Shown piece by piece: positions 39,878-50,809 of a DNA stretch of 64,000 nt. Numbering within the stretch: the stretch's first letter is position 1; each line of letters begins with the position of its first letter. The DNA lies in contig CABXWY010000002.1 in NCBI GenBank assembly GCA_902515985.1, positions 91,448 through 155,447 of the forward strand, in the 5' to 3' direction. The notes below the pieces were generated by a model. The model searched no databases. It had not been told where the DNA came from and saw nothing but the letters and a program-made list of their open reading frames with translations. Source of the DNA: an uncultured Pelagibacteraceae bacterium. GTDB lineage: Bacteria > Pseudomonadota > Alphaproteobacteria > Pelagibacterales > Pelagibacteraceae. A program made the translations under genes and the position numbers.

Positions 39878-41155
39878 TTAGGCTTTTATTTTGGGTAGAG
39901 AATAAAAGTCAGCTGTATCAATTTTAGACGAATGTTCTCTTCTCATATTCCATTTTTTATAAACACCTGCGCTTGCAAGACTTAACGTAGCTCTTCCATA
40001 ACGATAATTAGTATTATCCATTGATCTCATCAATCTATTTATTTTTTCATCTTTTTCAGATGAGAATAAATTTTCTTTTTGATTTTCATTTGATAGCCCT
40101 GTTAACATTACTCCTGCTTTTTGGTATCGACAGCCATGTTTAAAAATATTTTCTAATATTGAAATTGCAGCCTTAACAGTTTCAATACTATTGTTCGTTG
40201 CTATTGGAAAATCAATTGTTTTTGAATTTGAATAGTAGCCAAAATTTCTTTGAAAAGGACTTGTTCTAACAAAAACTGTTATTGCTTTTGCAACTAAATT
40301 TTCTGATCTAATTTTTTCAGATGCATTTAAGCAGTAATTTGCAACTGCCTCTTTTAGTTCTTGAAAATGTTCAACTCTTTTTCCAAATGAACGGGATACA
40401 ACACAACTTTTTCTTTTTGTTTGAGTTGTTTCCAAATCAATACAAGGAATACCTCTAAGCTCCATAGCAGTTCTTGAACTTAAAACATTTGAACATTTTT
40501 TGATCCATGTATTAGATTTATTCTTTAATTGTTTTGCATTATAAACTCCATTTTTCTGATAAAATTTAGTTAACTGTCTTCCAACTCCCCAAATATCATT
40601 TATTTCTATTTTTTCTAATATCGGATCAAGATTTTCGATACCAATTAAGCTTGTAACACCAGATTGTTTTTTCTTTGCAATATGATTTGCAATTTTACTT
40701 AAAGTTTTTGTCTTTGCTATCCCTATGCTTGTTGGTATACCTGTCCATTGCAAAACAGTATTTCTAATTTCTTTTCCAACTTTTTCAACTTCTGTATCAG
40801 AAAAATTCGATAAATCCATAAACGCTTCATCGATCGAATAAACCTCTATTTCTGGATTGAATCTTTTTAGAGTTCTCATAACCCTTCTCGATAAATCACC
40901 ATACAAAGAATAATTTGACGAAAAAACTTGGACATTATTTTTGATAATTATATCTTTTGCTTTAAAATAAGGTTCGCCCATTTTAATACCTAAAGCTTTT
41001 GCCTCGTTAGACCTTGAGATTATACAACCATCATTGTTAGATAAAACAACAACAGGTTTTTTTCTTATTTTTGGGTTAAATAATCTTTCACAAGAAACAT
41101 AGAAAGAATTACAATCTATTAATGCAATTTTTTTAGTATACTGAGTGGATGACAT
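39878..41155 (-). CDS. umuC: Y-family DNA polymerase V subunit UmuC
   Basis: [27 protein letters not shown]. Confidence 0.92.
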
Positions 41156-41528
41156 AAGTTACAACTCCCCAAATAAAAATATCTTCTTCTTCGTTGATTA
41201 AAATTCTATCTTTAAAATCTTTAGATCCTGAGGTTAAAAATTTTTTATCTCTTTCTTGCACAAAGCTTTTAACCACTAATTCGTCATGGACATTTGCAAT
41301 TACAGTTGAGAAATTTCTAGGTGTTAAACTTTTGTCGACAACTAGTATGTCCCCATCATTGATTCCAACATCAATCATTGACTTTCCTTGAACCCTGATC
41401 ACAAAGGTTGCTGGAACATTCTTGATCAAGTGAACGTTCAGATCTATATCTTCCTCTATGTAATCAGTTGCTGGAGATGGAAAACCAGCTCCTGCTTTAT
41501 GTAAATAATAAGGTATGGTCAGCTTCAT
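41133..41528 (-). CDS. umuD: UmuD (S24 autopeptidase)
   Basis: AGFPSPA cleavage site, GKSM Ser, VVK Lys, WGVV; start reset to MKLTIPY. Confidence 0.9.
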
Positions 41529-41535
41529 AATAAAT

Positions 41536-41550
41536 GTTCCTATTTTGTTC
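41536..41550 (-). promoter_or_regulatory. LexA (SOS) box of umuDC
   Basis: GTTC-CTATTTT-GTTC, i.e. alphaproteobacterial GTTC-N7-GTTC; -35 TTGACA at 41577-41582 on the minus strand. Confidence 0.85.
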
Positions 41551-41701
41551 TTATTAGTACAACACTTATTCAATGGTGTCAAATAGGTTGTATTTTGAGT
41601 CTGGAACTGAATCAAAAGTGAATCAAAACGTGAACATCCAAACTACATTTTGTTAGATTGTGGATAACTTGGACAAGGGATAGATTGCTTAGATATAAAT
41701 T

Positions 41702-44780: not shown

Positions 44781-45914
44781 ATGACTAAAAACAACTTAAA
44801 AGTGGTTAAATCCGCAAAAGAAAAAGACACAGAAAGCAAAGAAAAGAATAAAGCTTTAGAAGCTGCAATCAGTCAAATTACAGATAATTTTGGTAAAGGA
44901 TCTGTAATGAAGTTGGGCCAACAAAAAGCAATGGATGTTGAGTCAATTTCAACTGGTTCATTAAGTTTAGACCTAGCTTTAGGAATTGGTGGATTGCCAA
45001 AAGGAAGAATTATTGAAATTTATGGTCCAGAATCTTCTGGAAAAACAACGCTTGCGCTGCAAGTTGTTGCAGAAGCACAAAAAGCAGGTGGTATATGCGG
45101 TTTTGTTGATGCTGAACATGCATTAGACCCAGTTTATGCTAAGAAATTAGGTGTAGATACTGAGGAATTATTGATTTCACAACCAGATACTGGTGAACAA
45201 GCATTAGAAATTACAGATACATTAATAAAATCTGGATCAATGTCAGTTCTAGTAGTTGATTCTGTAGCTGCACTTACACCAAGAGCTGAAATTGAAGGTG
45301 AAATGGGCGATCATCATGTTGGATTACAATCGAGATTGATGAGTCAAGCTCTTAGAAAATTAACGGGATCTATATCTAGAACAAATACGATGGTAATTTT
45401 TATTAATCAAATAAGAATGAAAATTGGTGTTATGTTTGGAAGTCCAGAAACAACTTCTGGAGGAAATGCTCTTAAATTCTATTCATCTGTTAGAATGGAT
45501 ATTAGAAGAATAGGTGCAATTAAAGATAAAGATCAGATCATAGGAAACGCAACAAGAGTAAAAGTTGTTAAAAATAAAGTTGCACCACCTTTTAAAGTAG
45601 TAGAATTCGATCTAATGTATGGCAAAGGAATAAGTAAAACAGGAGAACTTATAGATCTTGGTGCTAAAGCAGAAATAGTTGAAAAGGCTGGCGCATGGTA
45701 TGCTTACAAAGGTGAAAAAATAGGACAAGGAAAAGAAAATGCAAAACTTTACCTTGAGCAAAATCCAAAAGCTGCTGCAGAAATTGAGATGTCTATAAGA
45801 GAAAAAGCAGGCTTAATTTCAAAAAAAATTGAGGGTAACCCAATTGAACAGGAAAAAATACAAGAAAAAGTAAAAGCAGAAGTAAAAGAAGAAACAACTC
45901 CTGAAAAGAATTAA
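44781..45914 (+). CDS. recA: Recombinase RecA
   Basis: [33 protein letters not shown]. Confidence 0.99.
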
Positions 45915-45927
45915 CTTTTAGTTATCT

Positions 45928-45957
45928 AAAAAGGCGCTTATTATGAGCGCCTTTTTT
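45928..45957 (+). terminator. recA terminator (probably bidirectional)
   Basis: AAAAAGGCGCT-TATTATG-AGCGCCTTTTTT. Confidence 0.88.
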
Positions 45958-46016
45958 CCCTTACTATCTCTAGGAATACCAACGCTTATTCAAACAAACT
46001 TACATCAGATCTTTGC

Positions 46017-46049
46017 TTTATCTCCAAAGTCTCTAGTCTGGGCACTAGT
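46017..46049. repeat. 33-bp direct repeat, copy 1
   Basis: TTTATCTCCAAAGTCTCTAGTCTGGGCACTAGT; 31/33 identical to 47928-47960. Confidence 0.9.
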
Positions 46050-46067
46050 CATCCTATAAAATCCTAT

Positions 46068-46100
46068 AACCCAGAACCACGATCCCTAAAATTTTTTCAT
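46068..46100 (-). pseudogene. Frameshifted signal-peptide start remnant (MKKFLGIVVLG if one T is restored)
   Basis: ATGAAAAAATTTTAGGGATCGTGGTTCTGGGTT directly after the stop of 46101..46487; similar to the starts at 47036 and 47887. Confidence 0.75.
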
Positions 46101-46487
46101 TTAATCTGATTTATAGCAATCCCAAGTTAAATTTGAATATTTAAATTCTTCTAATTTGCTAGTAGGCTGAATTGCAGTTTGATAAAGAAAGCCATTTTTA
46201 AAATCAAAAAATCTCATAGTTCTTGAACTATCTAGTACTGGTGCTGAACTCCAAGCATTGTCATTATTGAATTCTATAATTGTATCTTTTTCAAAAACAT
46301 CAAATTTTTTTTTTATAGAATAGTTATACGAAGTTAAATGCTCAATTGTTTTCGCACTATCATTAATCTTGAAAACTAGTTGGAAATCCTTTGTTTCAGA
46401 TTTTAAACAAGTCCAAAGGAAGGTTTTAGCATAAGATTGATTAAAACAAAAAATAGTGAATGTTAAAATTATTAAATATTTTTTCAT
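46101..46487 (-). CDS. Hypothetical secreted protein
   Basis: Signal peptide MKKYLIILTFTIFCFNQSYA; Cys near each end of the mature part. Confidence 0.8.
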   Translation of the reverse strand: MKKYLIILTFTIFCFNQSYAKTFLWTCLKSETKDFQLVFKINDSAKTIEHLTSYNYSIKKKFDVFEKDTIIEFNNDNAWSSAPVLDSSRTMRFFDFKNGFLYQTAIQPTSKLEEFKYSNLTWDCYKSD

Positions 46488-47036
46488 TTATTTAGTTTCT
46501 GTAATTCTTGTTATAGACCAAGGTCCATAAATAGTTTTAAATCCATAGACTACGTTGATTTGTTCAATACTTGATAATTCTGAAAACCATTTATACTTTT
46601 TCAAATCTTCTCTAAGATCAAACATACTGTAATCAACCCTGTCATACCAAATTTGTCCATTGCCTAGGATAAATCCTTTATCAAGACCAACAGGGATACA
46701 TCCTGGTTTAGTGCTTAAAATTTTGCTTCTAAAACTTTCAGTAAATGCTTCATCAAAAGTTTTACCATCAAAAAAACTCATGTTTGGGCCTGATATTAAG
46801 TCATGTTTAATTAATGATAATAATTTTTTTAAGTCTTTATTTTTTACCGCTTCTTGAACTTCTAAACCAAATTTATAAGACTCCTCAGGTACAAAATAAT
46901 TTTTATAAACTTCTTCTACATACGATTTAAGAGTTTGATCAAAACCTTCTGGCTTCATATCATCAGGGCAATTTTCTGCATAGCTAACTTTGAAGAATAA
47001 CAAGCTTAGAAGTACAATCCCTAAAAATTTTTTCAT
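46488..47036 (-). CDS. Hypothetical secreted protein
   Basis: Signal peptide MKKFLGIVLLSLLFFKVSYA; GFILGNGQIWY motif. Confidence 0.8.
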   Translation of the reverse strand: MKKFLGIVLLSLLFFKVSYAENCPDDMKPEGFDQTLKSYVEEVYKNYFVPEESYKFGLEVQEAVKNKDLKKLLSLIKHDLISGPNMSFFDGKTFDEAFTESFRSKILSTKPGCIPVGLDKGFILGNGQIWYDRVDYSMFDLREDLKKYKWFSELSSIEQINVVYGFKTIYGPWSITRITETK

Positions 47037-47887
47037 TATAAAGCCCTTTTTTCCATTTTATTTTTTTGAATTAATTTTAAGTGTTTAATTATTTTAAAAC
47101 TATCATCTAAAACCTTACAATCCCACCAATCCCACCATTTTTTATAGCTAGCTGCATAAAATTTTAAATTTAAATTTTTTCTAGAAATTATCATCTTTTG
47201 CTCAGTGACTTTATATTTATCTGGTTTAGATGTGAGTTTTATTTCTGTTATTTCTGCAACATAATCCATTGTATCAGTTGAAATTTTATAGCTGTAAGGA
47301 CTAAATTCATACAATTTAGCAGTATTTGAATCTAAAAAGTGAAAATAAAAATAGAGTAATTCACTATCTTCTTTATTGCTTAAACACTCTAGTTTAACGT
47401 TTGAAAGATCATTATCTTTCTTTGGTTTTGTTTCATTTGCAATTTTTTGAAACTCTGTATCCCAATAAACCATTCGAGATTTTGGATCTTTTAAAGAATT
47501 AGAGCAAAGAGCATAATATTTTTCATTTAACAATTCAGTTTTAGAGTAATCTCTTCCACCGATATCAAGGAAAGTTTTATATATGTTTTGGATATTTGAT
47601 TGAATATCTTCATTAGATATATTTATCTTAGATGAAAAAAAATACACATTTTTTTCTGCTTCCTCACTTAATATATTCATTTCATTCACAAATGATTTTT
47701 CTTTTTCAGTAAGAGTGTCAACATCTTTTTTTCTTTCAACACCTCTGCTCAGAAATTTATAATAAACTGTACATTTGGAATACTCATCATAAAGTTTCTC
47801 AAATACGTATTGTTGAACGGGTGTGTTTGCATAAGATATATGACAAAATAATAAACTCAGAACGAGGATCCCAAAAAGTTTTTTCAT
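47036..47887 (-). CDS. Hypothetical secreted protein, probably two domains
   Basis: Signal peptide MKKLFGILVLSLLFCHISYA. Confidence 0.8.
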   Translation of the reverse strand: MKKLFGILVLSLLFCHISYANTPVQQYVFEKLYDEYSKCTVYYKFLSRGVERKKDVDTLTEKEKSFVNEMNILSEEAEKNVYFFSSKINISNEDIQSNIQNIYKTFLDIGGRDYSKTELLNEKYYALCSNSLKDPKSRMVYWDTEFQKIANETKPKKDNDLSNVKLECLSNKEDSELLYFYFHFLDSNTAKLYEFSPYSYKISTDTMDYVAEITEIKLTSKPDKYKVTEQKMIISRKNLNLKFYAASYKKWWDWWDCKVLDDSFKIIKHLKLIQKNKMEKRAL

Positions 47888-47927
47888 TACTAAATGTTAT
47901 CAAAAGACTTGAGAATTAACCATCCGA

Positions 47928-47960
47928 TTTATCTCTAAAGTCTCTAGTCTGGACACTAGT
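47928..47960. repeat. 33-bp direct repeat, copy 2
   Basis: TTTATCTCTAAAGTCTCTAGTCTGGACACTAGT. Confidence 0.9.
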
Positions 47961-48025
47961 TTGTTGTTTAATTTGATGAGTCTTTATGTGATTAATTTTT
48001 TATTAATTTTAAATTGTCCGCATAA

Positions 48026-48065
48026 CTAGTGTGAGCTAGTGTGAGCTAGTGTGAGGTAGTGTGTT
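48026..48065. repeat. 10-bp tandem repeat (CTAGTGTGAG x3 plus degenerate 4th)
   Basis: ctagtgtgag ctagtgtgag ctagtgtgag gtagtgtgtt. Confidence 0.92.
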
Positions 48066-48142
48066 CCTCACGTGCATATTTTAAGCGCCTTTTTTCCCTA
48101 CTGTTTACTAGACATCAATTAAAAAAGCTGTATTTTTAAAAT

Positions 48143-50809
48143 ATGGCTGACAAATCATTAAACGAAATAAGAACTGCATTCCTAAAATATTTTGAGAAAA
48201 ATGGTCATTCGATTGTTGACTCGAGCAATCTCGTTCCAAATAACGATCCAACATTAATGTTTGCTAATTCAGGCATGGTTCAGTTTAAAAATGTATTTAC
48301 TGGACTTGAAAAAAGAGATTATAAAAGAGCAACGACTTCTCAAAAATGTGTAAGAGCAGGTGGAAAACATAATGATTTAGAAAATGTAGGCTACACACCA
48401 AGACACCATACATTCTTTGAAATGTTGGGAAATTTTTCTTTTGGAGATTACTTTAAAGAAAGAGCAATTGAACTAGCTTGGAATTTAATTACAAAAGATT
48501 TTGGACTAGATAAGAATAGACTTTATTTCACAGTTTTTAATGAAGATGATGAAGCATTTAATTTATGGAAGAAAATCACCGGTCTTAGCGAAGATAGAAT
48601 TATTAGAATACCAACTTCAGATAACTTCTGGTCAATGGGGGAAACGGGCCCTTGTGGCCCATGTTCTGAGATATTTTATGATCATGGAGATCATCTTCAA
48701 GGAGGTCTTCCTGGCACAAAAGACCAAGACGGTGACAGATATATAGAAATCTGGAATCTAGTTTTCATGCAATACGAACAGATAACAAAAGAAAAAAGAA
48801 TTGATTTACCAAAACCTTCTGTTGATACGGGAATGGGATTAGAAAGAATAGTAGCTTTACTTCAAGGAACGCATGACAATTATAAAACAGATCATTTTAT
48901 AAAATTAATTAACTCAATCTCAGATACAGTAAAAGTAAAACCTTCTGATGAAAACTTATCTAGTTTTAGAGTTATTGCTGATCATTTAAGGGCAAGTTCT
49001 TTTTTATTAGCTGAAGGTGTTCTTCCTTCCAATGAAGGTAGAGGTTATGTCTTAAGACGAATTATGAGAAGAGGCATGAGACACTCGCATCTTCTAGGAG
49101 CAAAGGAACCTATTTTTTATAACATCTTTAAAACTTTAGAAAACGAAATGTCTGGTAATTATCCTGAATTAGAAAGAGCACAATCTTTAATTAAAGAAAC
49201 CTTAAAAATGGAAGAGGAAAAATTCTTAGTTCTTTTAGAAAGAGGTATGAAGATATTAGATGATGAGATTGAAAAGATAGATAAAGTTTTACCTGGTGAA
49301 GTAGCTTTCAAACTTTATGACACTTATGGTTTCCCTTTAGACTTAACAGAGGACATACTTAAAAATAAGTCACTAAGCTTAGATCATGAAAAATTTAAAA
49401 AACTAATGAAAGACAGTAAGGAACTTGCAAAGAAGAATTGGAAAGGATCAGGTGATAGCTCAGTAGATGAAATATGGTTTGGAATTAAAGACAAAATAGG
49501 CTCAACTGAATTTTTAGGTTATGAAACTAATCAGGCAGAAGGAGTAATTTTAAGTTTAATTAAAAATAATAAACAATCTGATAGTTTAAAAGAAGGTGAT
49601 GAGGGTATGGTAATTTTAAACCAAACTCCATTTTATGGTGAGTCTGGAGGACAAGTTGGTGATAATGGAACAATATCTAATGGAAATAATATTTTTAAAG
49701 TTTCAGATGTTCAAAAAAAATTAAGTAACCTATTCGTTCATTACGGAAAAGTCGAAAAAGGAAATTTCAATTTAAAGGATAACGTAGAACTTAAAATTGA
49801 TATTGAAAGAAGAGAAAATGTTAAAGCATATCATTCAGCAACACACTTATTACATGAATCCTTAAGACGGATACTTGGAACTCATGTGATGCAAAAAGGA
49901 TCATTAGTTGCACCTGATAGGTTGCGTTTTGATTTTAGTCACATGAAGCCAATTTCTTCAGATGAAATGGTAAAAATAGATGAATATGTAAATCAAATGG
50001 TGAATAAAAAATCAGAGGTAATTACAAGAATAATGACTCCAAAAGAAGGTATTGCTCATGGTGCATTAGCATTATTTGGTGAAAAATATGGCGAAGAGGT
50101 TAGAGTTGTTTTTATGGGTGAGGAAGAAAACAAATATTTTTCAACTGAACTATGTGGAGGAACACATGTAAAAAATACTATTGATATTGGTAATTTTAAA
50201 GTCGTTAGTCAATCAGCTATAGCAGCGGGTGTTAGAAGAGTTGAAGCTTTAAGAGATAAACAATTAGATGAATTTTTAAAAAATAAAGAAAAACAATCCA
50301 GTCTTTCTGAACAAAAGGATGATGAAACAATTAAAATTTTATCTGAAGAAATTAAAAAACTCGGTGGAATGCTTAATTTAAATAAAGAAAATAAAAAAGA
50401 TTTAATTAAAGAATTAAATAAAGAATTAGAAAAGTTATCAATTAATGAAATTATAAATAATAAATCTAAAAATATCATTAAAGATGAAAAAATTAATGGA
50501 GTATTCATAAGAACGCAAAAAATTGATGGACTACCACCAAAAGAATTAAGAAGATTAATTGATAGTGGGAAAAAAGAAATTGGTGAAGGAATAGTTATCA
50601 TATTTGCAAACAAAGATGATAAGGTAGGTTTAGCTGTAGGCATTACAGACAAATTTAAAAACAAATATGATGCTGTTAAACTTGTTAAAAATGCATCAGA
50701 AATTATTGGAGGCAAAGGCGGCGGAGGAAGACCAGATTTTGCTCAAGCAGGTGGAGTAAATAAAGATAAAATTGATGATGCTTTAGAAAGTTTAAAGACT
50801 TTAATTTAA
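48143..50809 (+). CDS. alaS: Alanine-tRNA ligase
   Basis: [40 protein letters not shown]. Confidence 0.98.

Follow-up and report, generated by a model that had tools for sequence, protein, structure and literature searches.

The islet between recA and alaS in the window (the whole 64,000-nucleotide stretch of DNA analysed here, from an uncultured Pelagibacteraceae bacterium) is, at a probability that we put at about 70%, an integrase-less cassette which carries both arms of capsid-less SAR11 elements of ~9 kb and which the tyrosine integrase of these elements likely inserts and excises in trans at the recA terminator. Movement in trans is supported by the arms that the islet and the integrase-bearing elements have in common, by a joined attP next to the integrase gene, by empty and filled alleles at recA-alaS, by tandem units and by a second target gene. 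Going by its sequence, we class the islet as a non-autonomous cassette of a SAR11 satellite family, similar to a cis-mobilizable element (CIME), with its movement in trans being the probable rather than the observed part. The features are as follows, with positions counted along the window.

44781..45914, + strand: host flank, a 377-aa ORF conserved in relatives, which we take from its sequence to be recA
45928..45956, + strand: attL, the recA terminator-like hairpin, a palindromic stem around the putative crossover loop
45939..45961, + strand: left core repeat (exact 16-mer at 45946-45961; 21/23 with the right copy)
45962..46016, + strand: left arm, common to attP of integrase-bearing elements (aligns to L280, L283 and L042)
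46017..46049, + strand: A' site, 33 bp, with two 12-bp-spaced CTAGT units; likely an arm-type site that the integrase would bind
46050..46100, - strand: conserved tail and truncated signal-peptide start (a stub, frameshifted in this islet)
46101..46487, - strand: cargo gene 1, 128 aa, predicted exported, no family; 20 homologues
46488..47036, - strand: cargo gene 2, 182 aa, predicted exported, no family; 32 homologues
47036..47887, - strand: cargo gene 3, 283 aa, predicted exported; helical N-domain and variable beta-barrel C-domain
47888..47927, - strand: conserved 40-nt leader ahead of the first cargo gene; possible promoter
47928..47960, + strand: A site, 33 bp, homologous to the first integrase codons of autonomous elements
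47961..48025, + strand: AT-rich spacer specific to the integrase-less lineage, in place of the integrase start
48026..48065, + strand: B repeats, four 10-mers arranged head to tail; probably sites for the integrase arm or an excisionase, to which binding is presumed
48066..48099, + strand: attR, an imperfect left half-site and the right core repeat (16-mer at 48084-48099)
48143..50809, + strand: host flank, an 888-aa ORF, presumably alaS from its sequence

Boundaries and cargo of the islet

A perfect 16-bp direct repeat flanks the islet exactly as the initial annotation had it, at 45946-45961 and 48084-48099 with a spacing of 2138, and these are the only exact copies in the 1.09-Mb genome. Allowing two mismatches, the repeat widens to 23 bp (21/23; 45939-45961 and 48077-48099). 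The left copy forms the 3' arm of a hairpin directly after the recA stop codon (45928-45956, -17.8 kcal/mol, z -5.4), in line with the earlier claim that the repeat duplicates this arm of the recA terminator; the right copy has no comparable hairpin (z -1.3), and a simple terminator scan did not call the hairpin at recA. Collapsing the two copies, said to leave a clean recA-alaS junction, indeed gives one that resembles the empty alleles of relatives. An exact 16-mer repeat taken by itself is only moderately rare, being met in 11/1000 simulated sequences and in 30/476 real 2228-nt genome tiles, and the reality of this repeat rests on comparative data. Nested within these ends are an inner direct repeat of 33 bp (A' at 46017-46049 and A at 47928-47960, 31/33 identical) and the four 10-bp tandem repeats B at 48026-48065; A, B and the core have no further copy elsewhere in the source genome.

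The three minus-strand ORFs (283, 182 and 128 aa) all start with MKK and a 20-aa leader ending in SYA, and their joints read TAATG and TAAATG, so the ORF translations agree with what had been described; a fourth, truncated MKK start lies at 46050-46100. Export of the three proteins is predicted from the leader pattern. Between genes 1 and 3 the alignment is restricted to the leader, in agreement with the unrelated mature regions described before, and comparison gave no support for a fold common to gene 1 and gene 3's C-domain. All three families are small (20, 32 and 24 matches, with no informative annotation). The predicted structure of gene 3 (pLDDT 86) consists of a helical domain, common among its homologues, and a second, beta-barrel domain, which varies; the barrel resembles calycin/avidin-type folds at Z 8-10 and an rmsd of about 3, a likeness from which no function follows. 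That the cargo serves periplasmic or surface ligand binding is a guess. The reported lack of mobility genes stands: no integrase or transposase family was matched in the islet in Pfam or PHROGs, no tRNA was found in the locus from 47036 onward plus flank (L043), and Rfam gave no match in L001. The leader keeps a fixed distance of 39-41 nt in many loci; no consensus promoter was called at 47888..47927, and the promoter scan did not rise above shuffled sequence (17 vs 11.6 +/- 4.1).

About 3 kb upstream of recA, at 39878-41615 of the window, lie genes that we take to be umuD/umuC-like, which would place the target inside a DNA-damage gene neighbourhood.

Alleles at recA-alaS and a second target gene

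An intact junction, that is, a single terminator followed by alaS upstream sequence, is matched in 191/300 genus genomes, a count that includes at least one non-empty interval (G283), many of the remaining genomes being incomplete; the attR arm is found in 3/300. A GTDB-wide exact scan, the alleles of which overlap with this set so that the counts are not additive, returned 12 loci in 9 named Ca. Pelagibacter genomes with differing cargo. Labelled from sequence motifs, this cargo comprises a 698-aa TPR-type gene, one or two MKK-type genes or two to four pilin-type genes; another filled locus (L316) holds eight pilin-type genes in three tandem units, and one locus covers one end of a bigger element. 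Uisw isolates account for five of the named genomes, and this collection is analysed, according to its accessible part, in 10.64898/2026.10.07.757358. The comparison of the recA-alaS interval between relatives proposed in the initial annotation thus shows both empty and alternatively filled alleles, and the idea of a variable locus is borne out by the empty alleles (191/300) and by different cargo, often exported proteins, between the same flanks. The cargo is too narrowly described as exported-protein cassettes: this is often so, but pilin, TPR, restriction-modification-like and transporter-like genes are carried as well. The G283 insertion was rejected as a filled allele, as it stands before an intact terminator and has no arm; it is a 502-aa TPR-type gene between recA and alaS (L041:1987-3495).

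In marine metagenomes a 362-bp contig, which departs from the window by 7 letters and one 12-nt gap, leaves out exactly 2138 bases. This near-identical empty allele joins 45938 to 48077, so that the exchange would fall within the terminator loop; comparable joints were met in further metagenome runs. Another contig crosses the gene 3-gene 2 junction with no differences, and pieces of the cargo are found in independent runs. The proposed check on excised circles was answered in part: one contig runs from 48083 back to 45946 at about 86% identity and may be either a tandem junction or a parent element, but no cargo-only circle was seen, with 0 terminal repeats among metagenome loci L117-L194. 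Metagenome joints between the signal-peptide repeats were discarded, their sides of 21-26 nt being too short to count.

Across the family, the right arm is matched in 71/400 genomes at E<=1e-3 and in 38/400 at E<=1e-10. Most of these matches lie in a 75-aa gene, at its 5' end, which is restored by the left arm; this gene is conserved, belongs to no known family and is the commoner target of the same arms (L073, L074, L078, L089 and many more), with cassettes often two to four in tandem. Autonomous forms with the 75-aa-gene core also exist (L284, L298, L326), the recA and 75-aa-gene cores have a common half-site at the same distance from B, and other right-hand cores are seen besides these two main targets. 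One query of the source genome did not find the 75-aa gene. A loose arm pattern gave 48/211, chance matches included, compared to 29/211 with true arms as judged by eye, and genome G511 had a chance-looking arm match only. From the fetched loci L039 onward, with chance viral loci excluded, we parsed 83 distinct two-ended elements, 12 of them of recA type. Some of the 83 are the same element from two sources and hence not independent. At one chromosomal site away from recA (L310:8760-11854) a recA-type junction is accompanied by pilin and MKK cassettes.

Integrase-bearing elements with the same arms

Phage searches and the first viral pattern scans (0, 2 chance and 52 matches) turned up no integrase-less cassette, and none of the 52 scored against the module profile. 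An 18-nt left-arm pattern matched four IMG/VR contigs, two of them by chance. In contigs L280 (9271 bp) and L283 (9176 bp) the B repeats, core, left arm and A' are contiguous, an arrangement that reads as a joined attP; it is 85-91% identical to the two ends of the islet in the window, and the gene for a tyrosine integrase of ~560 aa starts inside A. These parents are recorded in IMG/VR with terminal repeats (77 nt in L280 and 120 nt in L283) and encode an AEP-type primase-helicase and a RusA-like nuclease; none of the 12 L283 ORFs scanned matched a capsid or conjugation family. The combination of integrase and replication genes with no recognised major capsid gene, as in phage satellites, is present in L280, L283 and L284 and not in the islet, and in genome G082 satellite genes sit behind the same attL. 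Locus L317, where a truncated alaS is joined to satellite genes, is possibly a single-cell amplification chimera.

The integrase of L083, a whole member of the family (559 aa), matches phrog_1 integrase at 6e-20 and Arm-DNA-bind_3 (PF13356) at E 1.2e-4, Pfam support for the family being below curated cut-offs. Residues R374, K401, K494, R497, H521 and Y531 are invariant in 11 homologues, and we presume them to be the catalytic R-K-(H/K)-R-H-Y set. The predicted fold is like that of Tn1549 Int, IntI, Xer and lambda Int (best E 2e-6), with weak matches to 3ju0, 3rmp and 3jtz (E 0.025-0.08) that hint at an arm-binding domain at the N-terminus. By catalytic set and modelled fold, the protein is a tyrosine recombinase. 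In the parents A coincides with the first integrase codons, where the repeat unit occurs in two reading frames, as one would expect of a site that works as DNA. A, B and the core are all retained in the integrase-less forms, whereas the conserved spacer is peculiar to these forms and lacks the integrase start, so that they look like a lineage and not like a fresh deletion; this AT-rich spacer is kept across 49 aligned modules and differs in autonomous forms. Integrase-bearing units stand beside cargo units in L083 and L153. The view that the locus is independent of any integrase is thus not supported, as its ends are attL and attR of an integrating element of a known type, of which the integrase-bearing, joined-attP form exists.

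How would the islet move then? We propose that the integrase, acting while an autonomous element passes through the cell, would bind the A/A' sites and the B repeats, and that strand exchange in the terminator loop would rebuild the recA terminator on the left and leave the alaS promoter region on the right. Between cells it could spread in phage particles, in vesicles or through homologous recombination in the flanking sequence; neither a packaging nor a replication signal was found. Some data speak against movement in trans. Close integrases (57% or more) occur in 3/400 family genomes, one of which is the query, and distant ones in 9/400, so the cognate enzyme is rare and many cassettes may be stranded; it was also not found in the source genome (87.6% complete). 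Two differences between attL and attR, in and beside the presumed overlap, could hinder excision, and the A-B spacer is not that of the parents.

The source genome's own 347-aa integrase was considered as the cognate enzyme and rejected, having a different target and different arms and an E of 3e-6 to the family profile. It belongs to an unrelated second element of ~4.3 kb just past the window end (G000:C2:155666-159970; L096, L097), which also has a primase-like gene and 11-bp repeats before the integrase, and which apparently sits inside a glycine riboswitch (partial copy left, Rfam match right). Distant integrase relatives (24-34%; L299-L307) lead comparable capsid-less elements, which occupy tRNA-Leu, tRNA-Cys and other sites and in some cases adjoin pilin arrays.

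Could the arms instead be stranded, left from one or a few old integrations, with the integrase inactive on them and the cargo changed by homologous recombination only? The arm in 38/400 family genomes (E<=1e-10) against 3 with a close integrase would fit such a relic, as would the two mismatches between the cores of the islet and the extensive SAR11 recombination proposed for such slots in the accessible part of 10.64898/2026.10.07.757358. We nevertheless consider it rather unlikely, since tandem units each have a full junction, two unrelated targets and other right-hand cores are used, presence is patchy among empty alleles, and the arms are conserved across several genera with the lineage-specific spacer included, which suggests continued use. 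It is much less probable still that the locus is an integron-like host system in which a host recombinase or RecA acts at the 16-mer and no mobile-element integrase takes part. The islet's lack of an integrase, its repeated signal-peptide starts with fixed rare codons and another tyrosine recombinase of 317 aa in the genome could be accommodated by such a system, but not easily the fact that both arms are common to integrase-bearing elements, in joined form; moreover, no attC-like palindrome stands among the longest inverted repeats listed, and the overlapping genes leave no room for one. A chance repeat or an assembly artefact, to which the exact 16-mer repeats in 30/476 genome tiles would lend some colour, is practically dismissed by the same ends with other cargo in complete genomes and by the cargo in independent metagenome runs, that is, refuted by the comparative data. 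Insertion and excision by the satellite integrase in trans is the reading that we retain.

Exchange inside the cassette and comparison with known systems

Among the 83 parsed elements 77 carry cargo, of 393-6204 bp. In these 77 the match of A' to A has a median of 28/32 within an element compared to 20 between elements, and it reaches >=29 in 34/77 versus 2.1% of cross pairs (0/1000 permutations, a test inflated by kinship among the elements). The other six lack cargo and have a single A, the outcome that recombination between A' and A would give, and such minimal units measure about 230 bp. Within parents, too, A and A' belong to one type, and integrase specificity may account for part of the match. 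Beside A', a conserved tail is found in 59/77 elements, an MKK signal-peptide stub in 23/77 and a pilin stub in 4/77, all four with pilin cargo, while the MKK stub pattern occurs in 12/1540 random body windows; some stub-bearing elements carry other cargo. For a codon test genes were picked by their 11-residue peptide alone, giving 58 genes in 43 unrelated mature clusters. Rare codons turned out to be fixed at the signal-peptide start: GGG in 32/34 (genome 7%), ATC in 37/43 (9%), GTG in 17/22 (8%), CTG in 32/43 (2%) and CTT in 35/36 (19%). At their 5' ends these genes are thus kept alike at the DNA level, as would suit a recombination point but also a recent common origin or a regulatory site.

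With less certainty than for the outer ends, we suggest that the A' and A repeats would serve for the exchange of cargo within the cassette, and that single genes could be gained or lost at the common 33-bp start of the signal peptide, with a stub remaining at the far end. Taken together this would make a nested three-level cassette system without genes of its own, in which a ~230-bp carrier docks at the recA terminator or the 75-aa gene via the integrase of a passing satellite, cargo swaps at the A sites and single exported-protein or pilin genes are added at the DNA-conserved signal-peptide start, the latter acting like an attC hidden in coding sequence. We put this forward tentatively, as a possibility with the odds against it; if true, the family would be a shuffling platform kept on purpose for surface and periplasm genes of SAR11, the ocean's most abundant bacterium, and not debris.

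Integrons are arrays of co-oriented genes behind one leader that vary between strains, and the islet likewise has co-oriented genes behind one leader and varies between strains. It differs in having no intI, in showing no attC-like inverted repeat among the longest listed and in its overlapping or abutting genes, and gene-level swapping, if there is any, would rely on a 5' repeat that is itself coding. The locus is therefore not an integron, although the integron analogy drawn in the initial annotation may hold for gene swapping inside the cassette.

CIMEs are described, in the accessible part of PMC5704250, as derived from an ICE or IME and moved in cis by conjugation, having lost their integration genes, kept attL and attR and undergone tandem accretion at one site with integrase-bearing relatives. 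The islet corresponds to this structurally, with no integration or transfer genes and with attL and attR of an integrase-bearing relative retained; it is one unit, and tandem accretion is seen in the family (L316 has three units, the 75-aa gene two to four). In contrast, the parent here looks like a satellite rather than an ICE or IME, no conjugation gene being recognised among the 12 L283 ORFs scanned, and the integrase-less forms are an apparent dedicated lineage with its own spacer and leader, which includes the cargo-less units of about 230 bp and far outnumbers the parents. The parents are also like VEIMEs, marine Pelagibacter phage satellites, as portrayed in what is accessible of PMC9618062 and PMC11876622, in size (about 9 kb), tyrosine integrase, primase-helicase, nuclease and lack of a recognised major capsid gene; the islet has none of the VEIME genes, and about 20% of VEIMEs are reported without an integrase. 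Such satellites are packaged as concatemers in the particles of a helper phage, and what is seen of the parents on this point is their presence in IMG/VR with terminal repeats. Terminator or small-gene targets and the arm anatomy were not found in the accessible parts of these two accounts. The integrase at one end of a tycheposon (10.1101/2020.12.28.424599, as far as accessible) is absent from the islet and present in the parents, and the target here is the recA terminator or the 75-aa gene, not a tRNA or tmRNA. By description the parents would thus be VEIME- or tycheposon-like. No description of these arms and targets was found in the accessible literature (10.64898/2026.04.03.716430, PMC12421898 and PMC11796062 included); VEIME datasets and other supplements may list the parent elements.

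The SAR11 pangenome has many small variable slots, rich in exported proteins and with almost no mobility genes (accessible parts of 10.64898/2026.10.07.757358 and PMC11796062), and the first of these sources calls their mechanism unresolved. An element like this one is invisible to gene-based annotation because its machinery is non-coding. Its arms supply a named enzyme, exact sites and cultured carriers, which makes the slot mechanism directly testable, at two or a few loci and not for the whole SAR11 flexible genome, and they offer a candidate route for gene swapping at fixed spots in streamlined SAR11. What is added here is the within-element match of the 33-bp sites, the cargo-less single-site elements and the rare-codon stubs ending many arrays, which together suggest nested gene swapping.

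Elsewhere in the source genome an orphan 12-codon MKK stub, with no arms nearby, is found at G000:C20:2208-2243 (L002). In L010, L312 and L319 a GC-rich element of ~35 nt, possibly a terminator or a small repeat, follows the cargo genes, twice in one cassette.
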